Notes: generated by a model from the sequence alone, not told the origin. A stretch of 64,000 nt of DNA from Dictyostelium discoideum (GCA_000004695.1 CM000154.2:416001-480000), one strand, 5' to 3'; counted from the first letter of the stretch, positions 1 to 17,135 are shown. A program made the numbers and translations.

Positions 1-582
1 CCTTTGGGAAATTCTTACCAACATCATATAACATTTGAAGATACATATACAATTCATTGGCTTCTTTATTCTTTACTCTAATCTCTGCTTTAGTCAATTC
101 AAATGTTCTATCTGGATCACATGGATTAATTAATCCATCCTTACCAACTCCAAACATACCATTACATGAAATTTCAATATAAAATTCAAAATGTTCTCCA
201 CCTTTTGAATTTTCAATTAATTTATATTCTTCTCTTAAATCTTGCCATGTTCCACCAATTAAACCTTTTAAAAAAAAAAAAAAAAAAATTAATATAAGTT
301 TTTGGGAAAAAAAATAAAAAAAAAATTAATTTACCTTGAATTGCAATACCATTCATCCAAATTAAACCTTCACAAGATGAATTCCAAATGAAATGAATAG
401 TTTTATCTTTCCAATCAGTTGGTACGTCAATTGTAACTTTAAACCAATAATTTGTCCATGATGGTCCAAATGATTCTCCAATCTTTGTATCTTTATATTC
501 AAGTTGAATTGCATCTTTAAATTTAAAAAAAATAATAAATAATAAATAATAAATAATAAATAATAAATAATAAATAATAATA

Positions 583-661
<79 letters not shown>

Positions 662-666
662 TATAA

Positions 667-716
<50 letters not shown>

Positions 717-933
717 ATAAATTTAAAAAAAAAAAATATAATAAAAAAAACATACCTTTATAAGAAATTCCTTCAACTTTTGGAGATACTTTAACTTTTA
801 CAGCTTCTGATGATTTTAAAGAAATTAATTTTCCATAAAGGTTTTCTCTTACGAAATAGGTATCACTAAGAAATTTTTCAATTCTTTCAATTGTAACATC
901 TTGATGTTTTAACATTACATTACCAGATGTCAT
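1..933 (-). CDS. alpha-mannosidase, GH38 family (cytosolic MAN2C1-like); 5' part, gene continues past the window start. Exons approx 756..933, 335..514, 1..264
   Basis: Translation MTSGNVMLKHQDVTIERIEKFLSDTYFVRENLYGKL... then KIGESFGPSWTNYWFKVTIDVPTDWKDKTIHFIWNSSCEGLIWMNG... then LIGGTWQDLREEYK...EISCNGMFGVGKDG aligns with the N-terminus of MAN2C1-type alpha-mannosidases (FERVEKF, GDSFGPTWW, ACNGLLGAGKG). Donors GTATGT/GTAAAT and AG acceptors, all phase 1. Confidence 0.8.
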
Positions 934-1697
934 TTTTGTTTATTATTGTTTTTATTTTACTAAAATAGAAAAATAAAAAAATAAATAAATATTATTATTA
1001 TAAATTTTATTAAAATAGAAAAATAAAAATAAAAAATAAAAATAATAAACAATAGATTTATAAAAATAAAAAAAAAAAAAATAAAAATATTGAACCAAAA
1101 AAAAAAAAAAAAAAAAAACAATGTGTGTTGTTTTTTTTTTTCAATTATTAATTTCAAGAAAAAAAAAAAAAGAAAAAAAAAATTAAAAAAATTAATTTTA
1201 AAAAATCTTTGGTGATCATCAAAAATTATGTTGACCCTTTGTTTTCTCCATTTTTCAAAAAAAGAAAAATGAAAAAATGAAAAAAAAATAAATAAATAAA
1301 ATAATAACAATAATAATAATAATAGATAATAAAGTTTAAATAATAATTGGTATAAACAAATATTTATATATTTATTTATTTATTTCATTTTTTTATTTTT
1401 TTTATTTCATTTTAATTCTTTGTTGAAATTGAAATTAAAATTAAAATTAAAATTTAAAATTTTATAATTCCATTAAAAGACCTACCTAAATAAAATAAAA
1501 AAAATAAAATAAAAAAAATAAAAAATAGTAAATTCCCCCAAATTTTAAAATCAAATTAATATATATTTAATCTAATCTCATGATTTTTATTTTCTATTTT
1601 TATTTTTAATTATATAATTATTTAATTAACCAAATTTAGTGATAAAAAAAAAAAAACAAAACTAATTTGCCATAAAAAAAATAAAAAATAATAAAAC

Positions 1698-1746
<49 letters not shown>

Positions 1747-1963
1747 GAAAAAAAAAAAAATTAAAAATAAAAAAAAAAAAATTAAAATTAATTTTTTTTT
1801 TTTTTATCAATTCTTTCGTTTTTTTCCAAACAATTCTCCAAAACTAAACTATAGTGTTTGTGTGTGTATATACAAATAAAATCATAAAAAAATATCAAAA
1901 TATCAAAATAAATAAATAAATAAACACACTATAATATTATTGTATATATATATATAAAATAAA

Positions 1964-2517
1964 ATGACAGAAGTTATTGAAACCAAAGAAGTTGAGAATA
2001 TTATCTCTGAACAATCATTAAAAACAGAATCAGTTAAAGTTAGTAATAAAAGATCAAGAGATGATGAAGAAATGAAAGATTCAGAGGGTGGTGTTAAAAA
2101 AACATCTTTCCCACAAATTAGTGTTGAAGATACTGTAAATTATCAATTTATAATTATCATTTATTTTTTTTTATTTTTTTTATTTTTTTATTTTTTTTAA
2201 ATCAACCAATCACCATCATAAATATATAACTAATATTAATATTAACATATATAAAATTGAATTATTATAGGAAGAAGAACAAATTAGAAAAGTTACTATA
2301 CCATTTAATAGAATTGCACCATTAAAAGCCAACTGGCAACAAATTTATGAACCAATCGTTACACATCTTAAATTACAAATTAGAATGAATACAAAAACAA
2401 GAAAAGTTGAATTAAAAACCTCAAAATCTACTAAAGAAACATCTGCCCTTCAAAAAGCAGCTGATTTTGTACATGCTTTTTCTCTTGGTTTTGAAGTTAA
2501 TGTATGGGAATAAAAAA

Positions 2518-2552
<35 letters not shown>

Positions 2553-2881
2553 CATCATTTATTTAGGAATTTAAATACTAATCCATCATTCATTTTCATT
2601 CATTCATTATTATAGGATGCAGTAGCAATATTAAGATTAGACGATTTATATATAGATTCATTTGATGTTGAAGATGTTAAAATATTAAAAGGAGATAATT
2701 TATCTCGTGCTATTGGTCGTGTAGCTGGTAAAGATGGTAAAACTAAATTCACAATTGAAAATGTTACAAAAACTAGAATAGTTTTAGCTGATAAGTATGT
2801 ACTATAATGAAACTAAGTTTCACTTGAATTATTTATTGTTTTAGACATTAATATGAATCACAATATTAATATAAAACCATT

Positions 2882-2922
<41 letters not shown>

Positions 2923-3093
2923 TATTATTATTATTATTGTTATTATTATTATAGACGTATTCATATTTTAGGATCATATTCCAACATTAGAGTTGCAAAA
3001 GATGCAATTTGTGACTTAATTATTGGTTCACCACCAGGTAAAGTTTACGCAAAATTAAGAACAGTTTCAAGTAGAATTGCAGAACGTTTCTAA
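1964..3093 (+). CDS. pno1: RNA-binding protein PNO1/Dim2 (KH domain, partner of NOB1). Exons 1964..2134, 2271..2501, 2616..2794, 2955..3093
   Basis: Spliced product ...[89 protein letters not shown]...[75 protein letters not shown] is near-collinear with human PNO1. Three introns with GTAAAT/GTATGG/GTATGT donors and TAG acceptors. Confidence 0.85.
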
Positions 3094-3275
3094 ATTGCAA
3101 GAAAAAAAAATAAAAAAAAAAAGAACAAAAAAAAATTAAAAAATAAAAAAAAGAAAAAAAATTTTAAAAAAAAAAAAAAGATTTCTGTATGTTTTATTAT
3201 TATTATTATTTAATTACTATTTCTAAGGTTGAATTGTTATTACTTTTTGGATTTGGTTCTGAATGATAATGTAAT

Positions 3276-3854
3276 CTAATTTTTAATATCTCTTAAATTG
3301 GCAGCTTCAACTTTTTTTGCGATTGCTTTTGCAATAGTTTCATCGAAATGGATATCTTTTAATTTTAAATATTCAATTGTTACGCCATATTTATTTAGAG
3401 CTTCTTTTAATTCATCATGGATTTGATTTGAGATTTTATCGCGGTTATGTAAAACTTGATCCAAGGTATTGTGAGATAATATTTCACAAACTTTAATTTG
3501 TGCCATTTCATTAACAAGTAATATACAATCATTGGCTTTGGTAACTGCTAATTTCGGGTCATGGATTCTGAAAACTACAAGTGCATCAACTGTTAAATTA
3601 ATATTATCCTTGGAAATGATCTTTTGTTTGTCTAATGTATATGTGAAAGTTCTAATATCAACAATATCACATTTTTGAATGAATGGAATAACTATATGAA
3701 ATCCTGCTTCTTTCACTGTATGAAATTTTCCAAAATTAAATACAACACCACGTTCATATTGATTTAAAATTTTAAAAAATCCTCTCTTATTAAATCTTTG
3801 AGTTTGTTTTGTAAATTTAATTGCTGTTGTTGATAATTTTTTAATTGAATTCAT
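3276..3854 (-). CDS. SPFH/band-7 domain protein (stomatin-like), 192 aa, single exon
   Basis: ORF ...QYERGVVFNFGKFHTVKEAGFHIVIPFIQKCDIVDIRTFTYTLDKQKIISKDNINLTVDALVVFRIHDPKLAV... matches the stomatin/PHB core (EYERAVIFRLGR...DMRT...ILTKD...VDGVVYYRV). There is no N-terminal hydrophobic hairpin; the N-terminus is basic. Confidence 0.75.
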   Translation of the reverse strand: MNSIKKLSTTAIKFTKQTQRFNKRGFFKILNQYERGVVFNFGKFHTVKEAGFHIVIPFIQKCDIVDIRTFTYTLDKQKIISKDNINLTVDALVVFRIHDPKLAVTKANDCILLVNEMAQIKVCEILSHNTLDQVLHNRDKISNQIHDELKEALNKYGVTIEYLKLKDIHFDETIAKAIAKKVEAANLRDIKN

Positions 3855-3893
3855 TATATTTATTTTAATTTACAATTATTTAAATTTGTTATT

Positions 3894-3928
<35 letters not shown>

Positions 3929-4290
3929 TTTTATTTTGAATAAAAAAAAAAAAAAGATATTTATGGAAAATGAAAATTTAGGTTTTTTGAGAAATGGCAT
4001 TTTAGGTTGGAATTACAACCTTAAAAGTGAAAAAATTATTTAAAAATAAATTAAAAATCGAGTTTCATAATCTTTGAAAAAAAAAAAAAAAAACAAAAAA
4101 AAAAACAAAAAGCAGATTAAAACACACAATTATTACTTTTTTTTTTTTTTTTTTTTTTTATTATTATTAAAAGAACATAAATTTAATTTTATTTTTTTAA
4201 CTTTGTTATAAAAAAAAAAAAAAAAAAATAGTTTATTAATTTAATTAATAAAATTTTAAAAATAAAACTATTATTTTTATTATTAATAGT

Positions 4291-5614
4291 TTATGGAATT
4301 GTAATTTTTGATTCATCAATATGATGACTATGAATTTGTTGTTTAGAATCTGAAACTCTCATCATTCTTGGTTTAAGGAAAGAATATTCTAGTGATACAT
4401 CAGTATCAATATCCAATTCATCAGCACAATGTAATGGCCAGAATGGGTCCCTTAAGAAAGCACGTGCCATCATAACAATATCACATTTATTGGTTTCTAA
4501 AATACTATCAGCTTCATTTGGTTTATTAATTAAACCAACGGCAGCAGTTTTTAAATTTGTATTTCTCTTTATTTGTTCTGCAAATTTAACTTGGTATAAT
4601 GGACCACCTTGAATTTTTTGATCAATTGAATTACCACCAGATGAGCAGTCAAGAATATCCTGTATATAATTATTAAAATTATTATTATTATTAGAATATA
4701 TATGTGATATAGTTAATTTATTGGAAAAACTTACAACACCAAGAGATTCAAGAATTTTAGCTAAACGAACAGTATCTTCTATATGCCAACCATCTTTCAC
4801 CCATTCTTCACAAGATAATCTTACTGATAATGGTTTTGACATTGGCCAAACGGTACGGACAGCTTTAACAATATCAATTAAGAATTTAATACGACCATTA
4901 AAATCACCACCATATTGATCGGTACGTTTATTTGAAGTTGGTGAAAGGAATGATGAAATTAAATAACCATGAGCACCATGAATTTCAATCATATCGAAAC
5001 CAATTTTTAAACATCTTTCAGCTGATTCCCTAAATTGATTAATAACAATATTGATATCATCTAATGTCATTTCTTTTGGCACTGTTGAACCTGGACCCCA
5101 TGAAATATCAGATGGTCCAATTGGTAACCATCCATGTCCATTTGTATCATCAATTGGAATACTTTCATTTCTTTTTCCTAAAAATGGTGGATGAGTTGAT
5201 GCTTTACGACCTGCATGAGCAATTTGAATTGATGTTTTCTATTTAAAATAATAAAAAAAAAAAATAAATAATTATTAGTTTTTAATTAATTAAATAAATA
5301 AAATAAAAAAAAAAAATAAAAAAAAAAAATATAAACATACACAATCAAATTGACGAATGAAATTAACAATTCTTTTTAATGGTTCCATTTGTTCATCTTT
5401 CCATAATCCTGCATCTGCATACGTAATTCTACCGATATCACTTACTGCAGTGGCCTCCATAACAATCATAGAGGCACCACCCCTTGCAAATGTACCATAA
5501 TGCACTAAATGGTAATCACTCATAAATCCATCAATACTAAAATATTTAATATTATTTTTTATTTTTATTTTAAAAAAATAAAAAAATAATTATAGATTAA
5601 TAAAAAGAAATTAT

Positions 5615-5645
<31 letters not shown>

Positions 5646-5842
5646 TTTAAAATTATACTTTACCTACTATATTGACACATTGGACTAACAACAATTCTAT
5701 TTTTTAATGTTAAATCTTTAACTGTTAATGGAGTGAAAATTTTTGGAGTTGATTGTGTAAGTTCAACTGGTTTACCAGAACTTCCATAATGTTTTGGTAA
5801 AGCATATGGATAAATAAATTCTTTAATCATATGTTGTTGCAT
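4291..5842 (-). CDS. NADH:flavin oxidoreductase, Old Yellow Enzyme / YqjM family. Exons 5664..5842, 5341..5536, 4735..5238, 4291..4659
   Basis: Spliced product ...[43 protein letters not shown]...[14 protein letters not shown]...[28 protein letters not shown]...LDCSSGG...[12 protein letters not shown] is collinear with B. subtilis YqjM and OYE proteins (SPMCMYSS, HAGRKA, HGAHGYL, SNHRTDEYGG). Three introns (GTAAAG, GTATGT, GTAAGT donors). Confidence 0.85.
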
Positions 5843-6253
5843 TTTTGTTATTATTATTATTTTTTACTAAATTCTATTTCCAAAATGAAAAATTATTTTT
5901 ATACTTGGGCTTTTTAATAAAAAAAAAAAAAAAATAAAAAAAAAAAAAAAATTTAATATTATTTTTAGATTTTTAAAAATTTTCTAAAAATAGTAATTTT
6001 TTTTTATTTTTTATTTTTTATTTTTATTTTTTTATTTCTAATTCCAAAAAAATAATAAATCTTAAAAATTACAAAAAAAAAAAAAAATATAAAAAAAATA
6101 AAAAAAAATAAAAAAAAATATAAATAGTTTTATATTATATCTATTGTTTTTTTTTATTTTCTTTTATTTTTTTATTTATTTATTTTAAAAAATAGTATTA
6201 TTACTTTTTTTATTTTATTTTATTTTATTTTAATTTGTAATTTTAATTTTAAT

Positions 6254-7224
6254 TTATTTTTTTAATGATAATTTCTTTTCAATTTCTTTAATTACTGAGA
6301 GAGCACAATCAGTGATTCTACTACCAGGACCAAAGATTGCAACTACACCATGTTGATAAAGGAAATCATAATCTTGAGGTGGAATAACACCACCACAAAT
6401 TACAGAGATATGAGAGGCATCCAATTTCTTTAATTCATCGATTAACTCTGGTACAAGTGTTTTATGACCAGCGGCTAAAGAGCTAACACCAACAACGTGG
6501 ACATCACTTTCAACGGCACTTTTAGCGACTTCTTTAGCGGTGGAAAAGAGTGGAGATATATCGACATCGAAACCCAAATCAGAGAAGCCAGAAGCAACCA
6601 CTTTAGCACCACGATCGTGGCCGTCTTGACCCATTTTGGCAACTAAAATTCTTGGTGGACGACCTTGTTCTTTTGTGAATTTTTTAACGGCATCAATGAC
6701 GGCATCGATTTCATTAGTTTTGCCATAGGCTGATTTGTAAGCACCACTAGCCAAAGAATGAGTTGGAACATAACGACCATAAACAACCTCCAAAGCATCA
6801 GAGATTTCACCAACGGTACAACGAGCACGAGCAGCATTGATTGACAATTCCAAGAGATTACCTTTACCAGTTTTAGCGGCTTCGGTGAGGGCTTCAAGAC
6901 ATTTCTTTGCCTCTTCAGAGTTACGAGTTGCCTTGATTCTCTTGAGACGTTCGATTTGAGCCTCTTTAACTTTTTTATTATCGATTGAAAGAATATCTAA
7001 TTTCTCCTCCTCTTTTAATTTATATTTATTTACACCAACGATAGTTTCGATGCCACTATCGATACGAGCTTGACGACTTGCAGCCGATTCTTCGATTCTA
7101 CGTTTTGGTAAACCCTCGGTGACAGCTTTAGCCATACCACCCATTTTTTCAACTTCTTCAATGATCTCCAAAGCTATGTAATCACGAAAATACCCAAAAA
7201 TATTACCAAACTTTGTCCATAAAC
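6254..7224 (-). CDS. mcmA: methylmalonyl-CoA mutase, C-terminal portion only (inter-domain linker plus cobalamin-binding domain). ORF 6254..7171 is solid; it may extend to an AG acceptor at about 7225
   Basis: [36 protein letters not shown]...[73 protein letters not shown]...[30 protein letters not shown] is about 60-70% identical to the C-terminal 300 aa of human MUT and E. coli ScpA. The roughly 430 aa N-terminal (beta/alpha)8 substrate-binding barrel is not encoded anywhere upstream in the window. Confidence 0.8.
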
Positions 7225-8019
7225 CTAAAAAACAGATATTTTTTTTTTATCTATTTTTAAAAAAAGATATACCTTTTTTTTTTAATTAAAAAAAATGTTT
7301 AGAAAAAAAAAAAAAAAAAAATTAAAAACCGAGATAATTTCTGTGATTCTCGAAAAAAATAATAAAAATAATAATACAAAAAGAAACTTCATGGAAAAAA
7401 AAGAAAAAAGAAAAAAGAAAATCTAATATCCTACACACGACAGTTCATAATTATAGTGCAATTGCAAAATAAAAAAATCGGTTAGGGGTGGATAATTAAA
7501 TAATCAAAAAAAAAAACAATTTTTAAAAAAAAAAATAAAAAAATTAAAAATTCGTGTGTGTAACTGACAACAAATCATTCTTAAAAAAAAAATAAAAAAT
7601 AAAAAATATCATTGCATGTGAATATGATAACTAAAAAAAAAAAACTTCCTTAATTAAAAATAAAAAAAAAACTCAAAGTCATTTAATTAATAATCATCTC
7701 AAATATAAACAAAATTTTAGTACTAAAATTATTATTATTATTATTTTTATTATAATAATTATAATAATAAAAAAAAAAAAAAAAAAAATTTTCATATTAT
7801 TTTATTTATATCTTTTATTTATTTTTATCTTTTTATTTTTATTATTAATTTTATAATTTATTTTCATTTCTTTTTTTTTTAGTTGATATATATTTTTTTA
7901 TTATTCATTTATGTCTACGGCTCACAAAAAAAAAAATTAAAAATAAAAAAAAAAATTAAAAATTAAAAAAAAAAAAAAAAAAAAAAATTAAAATAATTTT
8001 TTTTTTTTAATTTTTTATT

Positions 8020-8445
8020 TTAATTATTGACTCTTCTACTTTCTCTTTTGTTACTAACAGATGAAGTTTCGTTTGAAAATCTTTTGGTAAAATCAGCATC
8101 AGATTGTAATTGATTAGCTCTTTTTTTACCCGTTTTGTTTTTGTTTGATTGAGTTGTGATTCCACCATTATTGGAAGTTGTTGCAGCTTCATGTGTTGAT
8201 CTAACTTCGGTGGTAGAGTGCTCGATTGCTTTTTCAACTAGGTCATCTGTTGATTTTCTTTTGGTTATTTCGATATCCCTTTGCAATTTATTTTACTTGT
8301 CTCCGCCTCTCTAAATTCAACATTTACTTTGTACTTCAAATCATTTTTATCAATAGTAACTTCGTTAAATAATACACCAAATTCATCACTTTGATTGAAT
8401 TCAACATCTTTAAATTCCAAAAAAGCGACATCTTCGGGTGGAAAA
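8020..8445 (-). CDS. hypothetical protein; structure unresolved, two adjacent open frames
   Basis: Minus-strand frame A encodes PEDVAFLEFKDVEFNQSDEFGVLFNEVTIDKNDLKYKVNVEFREAETSK (8292..8445). Frame B encodes QRDIEITKRKSTDDLVEKAIEHSTTEVRSTHEAATTSNNGG...KRESRRVNN (8020..8283); its 'M' in the ORF track is a TTG. There is no convincing intron between them and no ATG for frame A. Confidence 0.25.
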
Positions 8446-8590
8446 ATAAAAAAATAAAAAAAAAAAATACTTTTTAATTTTTTTAATTTTTTTTTTATAT
8501 TTTTTTTTTTAATTTTTTTTTTTTATTTTATTTTTTAAAGTTTCGAACAATTATATATAAAAAAAAAGTAAAAGATATCCCTTCGGTCAA

Positions 8591-8605
8591 TTAAATAATA
8601 GTAAT

Positions 8606-8649
<44 letters not shown>

Positions 8650-8651
8650 TA

Positions 8652-8741
<90 letters not shown>
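8591..8741. repeat. (AAT)n microsatellite, about 50 units
   Basis: Uninterrupted aataataat run. Confidence 0.95.
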
Positions 8742-8745
<4 letters not shown>

Positions 8746-9126
8746 CTTAAATATACAAAAAAAAAATAAAAAAATAAAAAAATAAAAAAAATAAAAAAAA
8801 AAAAATAGAATGAAATGAAATAAAATAAAATAAAAAAAAGAAATACAGAATTTCTTTAAAGAAACTTATTTCGAAATTGTTTAAACAATCATACAGTTTA
8901 AAATTAAATAAATTGTTTTAAACCACCACTTTTTTTGAACACATGAAAATAAATAAGAAATAAAAATAAAAAGATAAAAAAAGATTTTTTTTTTTTTTTT
9001 ATTTTATAATTATTCTTGTCATCAGTATTGTTACTGTAATTAATCCCATGAGTTTTTTTTTATTATTTTTAATTCTTTTATATTTGAGATGATTATTAAT
9101 TAAATGACTTTGAGTTTTTTTTTTAT

Positions 9127-9312
9127 TTTTCTATGCCCAAAATTACCATATTAATTTCGGCAGCCATATTAATTTCAGCCTAAAATAGTTGGTCTGTGCA
9201 TGCCAAAATTAATATGGCTGCTGAAATTAATGTGGTAATTCTAGCAGACATAAGTCCCATGCCAAAATTACCATATTAATTTCAGCAGCCATATTAATTT
9301 TGGCATGGGACA
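9127..9312. repeat. three copies of a roughly 45-bp unit in alternating orientation (A+, B-, C+); copy C is itself a near-perfect palindrome
   Basis: 9133..9180 ATGCCCAAAATTACCATATTAATTTCGGCAGCCATATTAATTTCAGCC; 9199..9240 is its reverse complement; 9257..9310 CCCATGCCAAAATTACCATATTAATTTCAGCAGCCATATTAATTTTGGCATGGG has 15-bp self-complementary ends. Confidence 0.7.
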
Positions 9313-9798
9313 ATTGATGAAAAAAAAAAAAAAAAAAACAGAACTTCAAAAATATTTAAATCAAAGCAAAAAATAAATAATAATAAAAAAAAAAATTTGT
9401 TATAAAAATATGATTAAATTTCAAAAAATAATGATAATAAAAAAAAAATTAAAGAGAAACTCATATATAAAACAGATTCAAATTATCGAATAAACTTTTT
9501 TTTAAATTAAAAATAAAAATAAACATAATCTTTTATTTGCTTAAAAAAATAATATAAAAAAAAAAAAAAAAATAATTATTAAATAAAAAAAAGAATGGTT
9601 TTTTAAATGTCTTTATTTTCACTTTTTTATTTTTTTTATTTTATTATTTATTTTATTTTATTTTATTTTATTATTTATTTTATTATTTAATTTATTATTT
9701 ATTTTATTTCATTCCATTTCATTTCATTTTAATTTATTTTTATTTCTTTTTTTAAAATTTGATTCAAGTGAATTATCTTTGGAATGATTGAAGTCCTG

Positions 9799-13536: not shown

Positions 13537-13636
13537 NNNNNNNNNNNNNNNNNNNNNNNNNNNNNNNNNNNNNNNNNNNNNNNNNNNNNNNNNNNNNNNN
13601 NNNNNNNNNNNNNNNNNNNNNNNNNNNNNNNNNNNN
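13537..13636. other. assembly gap (100 N)
   Basis: A run of n characters. Confidence 0.99.
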
Positions 13637-16077: not shown

Positions 16078-16159
16078 TGTAAGCTAAGGGATTCGAACCC
16101 TTGTATCAATGATATTGCAGCCTTAATGCAACCCCTTAGACCAGCTCGGGCAAGCTTAC
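16078..16159 (-). tRNA. tRNA-Leu (anticodon AAG), class II with long variable arm
   Basis: Reverse complement GTAAGCTTGCCCGAGCTGGTCTAAGGGGTTGCATTAAGGCTGCAATATCATTGATACAAGGGTTCGAATCCCTTAGCTTACA. It has a 7-bp acceptor stem, a D arm, an anticodon stem TTGCA/TGCAA with loop TTAAGGC, a 13-nt variable stem-loop and T-loop GGTTCGAATCC. Confidence 0.85.
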
Positions 16160-16409: not shown

Positions 16410-16701
16410 GGAACCCAAGTTAATCAGAAAATTTCCAGATTTTTAACTTTTTAAAGAAAAATAAAAAAAATAGAAAGAAAATAAAATGAAAATCACAAAC
16501 AACACCACAAATATTAAGCAACACAAATGCCTACAAAAAATAAGCGAAATTGTGGATAAAACTCAATTAAAAAAAAAACAATTCAAATACGTCATAAACA
16601 TCAATCACGAACCAGACGATAAAATAAAAAAAGATTTAGAAAAAAGTTTGGACAAAAAAGATGTTTTAATCAAAAGTAATAATACAATTCAAAATTCGAA
16701 A

Positions 16702-16743
<42 letters not shown>

Positions 16744-17135
16744 TAAACCAACCCCTCTTTTAGAGACCCTGTAAAAAAAAATAAAATAAAATAAAATGAG
16801 ATCTAGCATCTCAAGGAGAAGCAAATAATAATTGCGTTATCCAATTCAAAAAAAAAATAATTTATCAATTACTATGACCCTGTAAAAAAAAAATTATTAT
16901 TATTTATCCCTGTAAAAAAAAAAAAAATAAAATGAGATCTAGCATCTCAAGGAGAAGCAAATAATAATTGCGTTATCCAATTCAAAAAAAAAAAATTTAT
17001 CAATTACTAAAAAAACAACAACAACAATCTCTTTTTTTGATTATTTCATTTTTCATAAAAAAGACTTAAAAAACAAATAAATAAACTATTTTAAAAAGCC
17101 ATCTTTTTACTTATTGTAATCTATTATTTGTTTCG
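16186..17135. repeat. composite repeat upstream of the tRNA: about 140-bp direct repeats (16196..16345 and 16999..17135, about 90% identical) flanking a tandem duplicated 68-bp unit (16793..16860 and 16930..16995); the motif AATTTATCAATTAC recurs at each junction
   Basis: Direct sequence comparison: ...CAACAACAACAATCTCTTTTTTTGATTATTTCATTTTTCAT(A)AAAAAGACTTAAAAAACAAATAAATAAACTATTTTAAAAAGCCATCTTTTTACTT... occurs twice. AAATGAGATCTAGCATCTCAAGGAGAAGCAAATAATAATTGCGTTATCCAATTC occurs twice. Confidence 0.7.

Follow-up and report, generated by a model that had tools for sequence, protein, structure and literature searches.

The segment between two perfect 54-bp inverted repeats at positions 7656 to 9130 of the window (the whole 64-kb stretch of Dictyostelium discoideum DNA analyzed here, AX4 chr5:416,001-480,000) very probably belongs to thug-S, a class II (DNA) transposon specific to Dictyostelium, and forms the interior of a 1,657-bp remnant copy. 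Alignment to two intact copies, L001 and L002, at 95 to 97% places the left limit of the remnant at 7656 and its right limit at 9312, and an intact version of this copy would measure ~1.84 kb. The element is a catalogued repeat of the already known thug-S family. Its right terminal inverted repeat (TIR) is complete, while the left TIR is without its outer 182 bp, i.e., its terminus and hairpin units are gone. Because it has lost the outer left TIR and the start of its ORF, and because a frameshift interrupts the ORF, the window copy should be unable to transpose and is best read as an immobile relic that keeps its miRNA-bearing TIR. The parts of the remnant are as follows.

7656..9312, minus strand (strand of the ORF): thug-S remnant, 1,657 bp, from the alignments with L001 and L002
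7656..7709, no strand: left 54-bp arm, sole remainder of the left TIR ("arm B")
8020..8441, minus strand: degenerate thug-S ORF, from alignment with L001 and L002
8594..8741, no strand: (AAT)n microsatellite inside the element, 49.7 copies
9077..9312, no strand: right TIR, whole ("arm A," the one upstream of the ORF), 236 bp, with its extent and terminus set by end motifs and by aligning left against right TIRs in L001, L002, and L004
9077..9130, no strand: right 54-bp arm, inner segment of arm A
9254..9312, no strand: terminal palindromic unit GTCCCATGCCAAAATTAATATGG...CCATATTAATTTTGGCATGGGAC(A), found at both ends of intact copies
9313..9318, no strand: ATTGAT, expected right half of a 6-bp target-site duplication (TSD), left partner missing

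The preliminary description of this DNA was accurate about the repeats themselves and about what lies between them. Direct comparison reproduced the reverse-complement identity of 7656-7709 and 9077-9130 (54/54 nt); the arms lengthen to 61 nt with two mismatches in BLAST, and a repeat finder paired them over 73 nt at 89%. With up to three mismatches allowed, the 54-mer occurs at two sites in the 64-kb window, which are the arms themselves, and it was absent from all 100 dinucleotide-preserving shuffles of the window, in agreement with the claim that the arms lie far above chance. The small ORF pair reported between the arms was found on the minus strand (8020-8286 and 8265-8420), as was the (AAT)n array, which had been given as ~150 bp. 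L001 has a shorter array and L002 has none, and beside the window array, at ~8742, two near-identical assemblies differ by 3 bp in length.

Intact copies and the termini of thug-S

Six intact copies (L001, L002, L004, L009, L010, and L011), recovered from other assemblies as loci around homologues of the ORF, were compared; L003, a nested or fragmented arrangement, was left out of the TSD count. The intact copies are 1.56 to 3.0 kb long in the alignments, and all six start with 5'-TGTCCCATGCC and finish with GGCATGGGACA-3'. Their TIRs of ~215 to 240 bp have palindromic units on the outside and a segment of ~55 bp on the inside, and the inner TIR boundary, ...CTCAAATATAAA, is common to all copies and coincides with the inner edge of the 54-bp arms. 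Each of the six is flanked by a perfect 6-bp TSD (ATTAAC, CATATT, TTTGGT, GGTGTG, GTTGCA, and TATAAC), for which the probability of a chance match is ~1.4e-3 per copy. These duplications indicate insertion at a staggered cut, and they carry the case for mobility, current or past, as neither a transposase nor an excision footprint nor an empty site turned up. The earlier proposal of a DNA transposon with terminal inverted repeats is borne out by this multicopy family and its TSDs.

Arm A of the window copy has the same make-up as a TIR of an intact copy, with outer palindromic hairpin units followed by the inner 54-bp unique segment, and it reaches the terminus ...GGCATGGGACA at 9312; the terminal motif has a single occurrence in the window. 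At 7656, homology to all other copies ends, and those copies run ~160 to 180 bp further, to GGGACA. The window copy thus has only the right end of the two-terminus arrangement (TGTCCCATGCC...GGCATGGGACA with TIRs of ~215 to 240 bp). It also has no 6-bp TSD: neither ATTGAT nor ATCAAT occurs in 6900-7800. The missing left terminus is the mark of a truncated member of the family and is no argument against homology.

Three other accounts of the segment were weighed. According to the preliminary description, it would be a complete small transposon or foldback element with the 54-bp repeats as its termini (7656-9130), and the perfect inverted repeat with 1.37 kb between its arms agrees with this. 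Such an element is nevertheless very unlikely here, since the hexamers flanking these boundaries (TTAATT versus CTATGC) show no duplication, homology to other copies continues for 182 bp past 9130 to the true right end at 9312, and every intact copy has the 54-bp segment inside a longer TIR, as its inner end rather than its terminus. A local, nonmobile inverted (hairpin) duplication unique to this locus would match the finding of the arms just twice in the 64-kb window, but the multicopy check that had been proposed brought out the arms, ORF, and flanking hairpins together at at least six other loci on several contigs, with TSDs, which leaves this account almost no probability. Equally negligible is an artifact of the AX4 assembly, such as a palindrome joined wrongly close to a gap. 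Palindromes do pose assembly problems, and a 100-N gap lies at 13537-13636, but GCA_054883475.1, assembled independently to chromosome scale, closes the gap and has the same truncated, frameshifted structure nearly base for base, differing over 7000-9500 by 2 substitutions and 4 small indels.

The thug family of Dictyostelium DNA transposons was reportedly described by Glockner et al. in 2001. A comparison with the thug families had been suggested on the basis of the window, and the element matches thug-S: the ORF cluster includes DDB_G0271154, and the C-terminal two-thirds of the ORF is 94% identical to the cluster representative. DDB_G0271154_TE is labeled "thugS element" (PMC12405889), and thug elements make up ~0.1% of the genome (PMC5633606). 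The name thug-S is used here on the statements of two papers and on homology to one named gene, and it does not set the element apart from the related thug-T.

Two of the intact copies have noncoding RNA genes or gene fragments nearby, L011 at ~2 kb from a large-subunit rRNA fragment (L011 1-910) and L001 at ~0.9 kb from a tRNA gene (L001 3061-3134). A gene model that joins a thug ORF to an integrase-domain protein, DDB_G0270824 (P0132), suggests that thug copies sit in transposon clusters.

Internal ORF

The ORF pair arises because the A-run at 8291-8294 has lost one A, shifting the frame of a single degenerate ORF, and a 59-bp deletion at 8441/8442 takes out the region that holds the ATG in L002. 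Both lesions are also present in GCA_054883475.1. After frame correction, the ORF yields a translation with 98% identity to DDB_G0290953. The ORF occurs in multiple copies in D. discoideum (DDB_G0290953, DDB_G0271172, DDB_G0281529, and proteins from newer assemblies), and the 90% cluster of DDB_G0271172 comprises DDB_G0271154 and five more members. No Pfam family matched the frame-corrected window ORF, even at E ≤ 1, and the other proteins of the family, 89 to 178 aa long, have no recorded Pfam domain. With ~140 to 180 aa and no recognizable domain, the small ORF of thug-S is far below transposase size. Since it is too small for a transposase, thug-S would have to be mobilized in trans, by an enzyme from elsewhere.

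Two categories of element were ruled out. An autonomous class II transposon was rejected, as no transposase is encoded. MITEs are short (less than ~0.8 kb), noncoding, and high in copy number, whereas thug-S copies are 1.56 to 3.0 kb long with a conserved small ORF and have ~10 annotated ORF copies in AX4.

The ORF was observed in two variants when L001 4770-5250, L010, and L011 were compared with window 8300-8441 and L002: a 178-aa type (MVRQLLKK...) and an ~145-aa type (...VEFNQSDEFG...), which have only the C-terminal ~90 aa in common. These variants may be subfamilies, possibly corresponding to the thug-S/thug-T split. Several thug-S gene models (P0121, P0122, P0123, P0125, and P0128) start with MAAEINMVILAWDL, a peptide that is the translation of the terminal miRNA hairpin/palindrome (in the window, 9227-9349 on the minus strand). 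The first exons and "introns" of such models are probably prediction artifacts; L002 has a contiguous ATG-initiated ORF instead of a first exon of this type. Translation of the hairpin in these models accounts for the published wording "in the intron of thug-S."

Identity of the two inner arms

The arms of the window copy were compared with those of five other copies, all from GCA_054883475.1 (L001, L002, L009, L010, and L011; the comparison motif is in arm A only in L009). Three points are diagnostic in the other copies. At the first, a T breaks the A-run in arm A only; at the second, before TCAAAG, arm A has C and arm B has G; and at the third, TAATAATAAT in arm A stands against TAATAAT in arm B. 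Both arms of the window copy have the T and the C, which are arm-A states, together with the short TAA run, which is the arm-B state. Because both window arms carry one mosaic of states that differ between the arms elsewhere, we infer from these character states that the 54/54 identity is probably due to homogenization between the arms. The shared mosaic could have arisen by intramolecular pairing of the arms with mismatch correction or, alternatively, by repair in which a broken left arm was re-synthesized with the right arm as the template. Descent from a subfamily whose master copy already had identical mosaic arms could likewise account for it.

The adjacent methylmalonyl-CoA mutase fragment

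Two features lie directly to the left of the remnant.

6254..7175, minus strand: methylmalonyl-CoA mutase C-terminal fragment (DDB_G0287563), 305 of ~728 codons, context outside the element
7176..7655, no strand: AT-rich DNA from the mutase breakpoint to the broken end of thug-S, 480 bp

A truncated mutase beside the element had been noted before, at a distance of ~430 bp; the truncation and the adjacency held up, while the distance is 480 bp, with mutase homology ending at 7174/7175. The fragment matches DDB_G0287563 of D. discoideum AX4 at 100% identity. Long mutases used as tblastn queries matched the window at 6278-7174 only, and no N-terminal mutase remnant was detected across the 64 kb.

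A look-up of the neighboring Band_7 gene brought up just the near-identical strain and short Logan contigs, and a homology search with that gene reached a divergent D. discoideum assembly, GCA_054859385.1, in which the syntenic locus (L012) has a full 728-aa mutase (L012 5170-7525); AX4 keeps the C-terminal 42%. L012 is collinear with window 1-7175 at ~91% nucleotide identity, and collinearity stops at 7175/7176. The mutase N terminus, an abhydrolase gene, and a Meth_synt_2-like gene occupy L012:1-6603, a region with zero matches in the 64-kb window. Judged by this synteny, the mutase truncation is a derived, lineage-specific rearrangement. The preliminary description had offered an insertion or rearrangement as the cause of the truncation; the rearrangement is supported by the full gene at the syntenic site, and the element is only a possible cause of it. 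Over the retained 921 nt, AX4 and L012 are separated by 19 synonymous changes and 1 nonsynonymous change, so the AX4 branch has either lost the rest of the gene recently or kept the B12-binding fragment under constraint or selection.

D. discoideum has been counted as encoding methylmalonyl-CoA mutase (PMC3605638, PMC2667541), and the literature searched contained no statement of the AX4 mutase as a fragment from a lineage-specific rearrangement. An upstream in-frame peptide was rejected as a continuation of the mutase, as nucleotide synteny with the intact gene ends at 7175. The proposition that other dictyostelids lack the mutase was dropped, as it rested on their absence from a match list that also missed the full-length ACTFIR protein.

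The rearrangement breakpoint inside the mutase gene faces the broken thug-S end across the 480-bp spacer. BLAST of 7150-7670 gave no match to the spacer beyond low-complexity sequence in L001-L004, L009-L012, or the rest of the window, and only the orthologous loci L005 and L006 match it, at 100%. A newer annotation, P0127, takes part of this spacer as a spurious 5' exon.

It is possible, though in our estimation unlikely, that this thug-S copy broke in the palindromic outer part of its left TIR and so set off the rearrangement in which the mutase gene lost its 5' 58%; the 480-bp filler and the homogenized arms would then be repair footprints. The broken ends of thug-S and the mutase face each other 480 bp apart, thug-S has lost precisely its palindrome cluster, the truncated mutase is a derived state specific to one lineage, and right-arm character states run through the left arm as far as the break. 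For the two to lie within 500 bp of each other by chance would have a probability of ~1e-3, a rough, uncomputed estimate from the ~0.1% of the genome that thug makes up. On the other hand, the unassignable DNA in the middle means two junctions instead of a single one; the thug-S truncation is possibly older and unrelated; and dispensable DNA gathers both transposons and rearrangements. A fuller version of this account, which we put forward as a doubtful conjecture, would make the long perfect palindromes of the outer left TIR a fragile site whose breakage destroyed the methylmalonyl-CoA mutase in the NC4/AX4 laboratory lineage and left three repair scars: the loss of just the palindrome cluster, the 480 bp of filler, and a left arm re-synthesized from the right arm, the last of which would explain the 54/54 identity. 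Were this fragile-site reading true, the reference strain of a major model organism would be without a functional B12-dependent mutase owing to a transposon palindrome, and the retained B12-binding fragment would be very young or still under selection.

Two further observations concern the window beyond the mutase and the element. The 100-N gap of AX4 at 13537-13636 corresponds to ~390 bp in the collinear GCA_054883475.1 (L005 3549-3941). A tRNA-Leu(AAG) gene lies at 16078-16159 on the minus strand, and 300 to 900 bp on, 16452-16992 matches the nonsyntenic L012 20132-20557 at 86 to 93%; the sequence at 16452-16992 is probably a fragment of a tRNA-gene-targeted retroelement.

The miRNA hairpin in the right TIR

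The outer part of the right TIR, 9133-9312, is a nested palindrome cluster with the following features.

9150..9170, plus strand: miRNA_can_D3-3p (AUUAAUUUCGGCAGCCAUAUU), exact match, published at chr5:425150-425170
9199..9307, no strand: long near-perfect hairpin, from RNA folding, with the mir-7131 match within it
9213..9235, plus strand: miRNA_can_D3-5p (UAUGGCUGCUGAAAUUAAUGUGG), exact match, published at chr5:425213-425235

A precursor of Rfam family RF03716 (mir-7131) was matched at 9209-9297 on both strands, at 93.8 bits on one and 93.1 bits on the other, where the gathering score is 74. RNA folds of the hairpin have minimum free energies of -81 kcal/mol (z = -11.4) and -85.8 kcal/mol (z = -11.45), from which transcripts crossing the right TIR are predicted to be capable of folding into ~45-bp stems. 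The hairpin is above threshold once each in L001, L002, L009, L010, and L011, always in the ORF-upstream TIR; the divergent intact copy L004 gave no mir-7131 match. The relic in the window would persist as one of ~5 genomic sources of the hairpin RNA.

The sequences and coordinates of miRNA_can_D3 in the window agree exactly with those in Table 2 and S4 Table of Meier et al. 2016, and this agreement, together with the identity of the mutase fragment to DDB_G0287563, places the window at chr5:416,001-480,000 of D. discoideum AX4. Those authors (PMC4894637) described a multicopy miRNA in the DNA transposon thug-S and equated it with the thug-S-derived miRNAs that Avesson et al. reported in 2012, and Liao et al. 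2018 handled the same miRNAs as multicopy loci within thug-S. The locus, miRNA_can_D3 or mir-7131, is a published DrnB/RbdB-dependent small-RNA locus. In Table 2 and S4 Table of PMC4894637, the "3p" small RNA lies 5' of the "5p" small RNA on the strand of the table, and the 5p/3p labels appear to be swapped.

Considering that the element is a catalogued repeat and the hairpin a published miRNA locus, the identification mainly clears a false lead. Three points go somewhat beyond the published statements that we found. First, thug-S has TIRs of ~0.2 kb with miRNA hairpins inside them, and its insertion produces 6-bp duplications, facts that help to classify an orphan transposon family with no known transposase. 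Second, the window copy combines a probable homogenization of its arms with the loss of one terminus. Third, and as a modest by-product, the mutase of AX4 is only a C-terminal fragment through a lineage-specific rearrangement, which is relevant to users of AX4 who study B12 or propionate metabolism.

Comparison with known elements

The remnant agrees with thug-S in its ORF, which is homologous to the "thugS element" gene, in its thug-S-derived miRNA hairpin at the published coordinates, and in its right terminus and 236-bp TIR, which are as in intact copies. It differs in that it is without the outer 182 bp of one TIR and without a TSD, in that its ORF is broken by a start deletion and a frameshift, and in that its inner arms are identical, whereas those of other copies differ at three positions. 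The hairpin does not differ from ddi-mir-7131/miRNA_can_D3, as it is itself a published locus (chr5:425150-425235); the difference is one of placement, which was published as "in the intron" of a thug-S gene model and is here inside the TIR.

By analogy, thug-S may work like long-TIR nonautonomous class II elements and transposon-derived miRNA genes. As in foldback (FB-type) and other long-TIR nonautonomous elements, its long TIRs are composed of repeated palindromic subunits, and it has no recognizable transposase and is prone to secondary structure. Its TIRs are ~0.2 kb long, in comparison to kilobases in foldback elements, it has a conserved small ORF, and it is not known to be homologous to FB elements. 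With miRNA genes derived from transposon TIRs, such as the MITE-derived genes of plants and animals, thug-S shares a precursor that comes from transposon inverted-repeat sequence and has several genomic copies, yet its hairpins are palindromes within one TIR rather than the product of pairing between the two TIRs of a short element.
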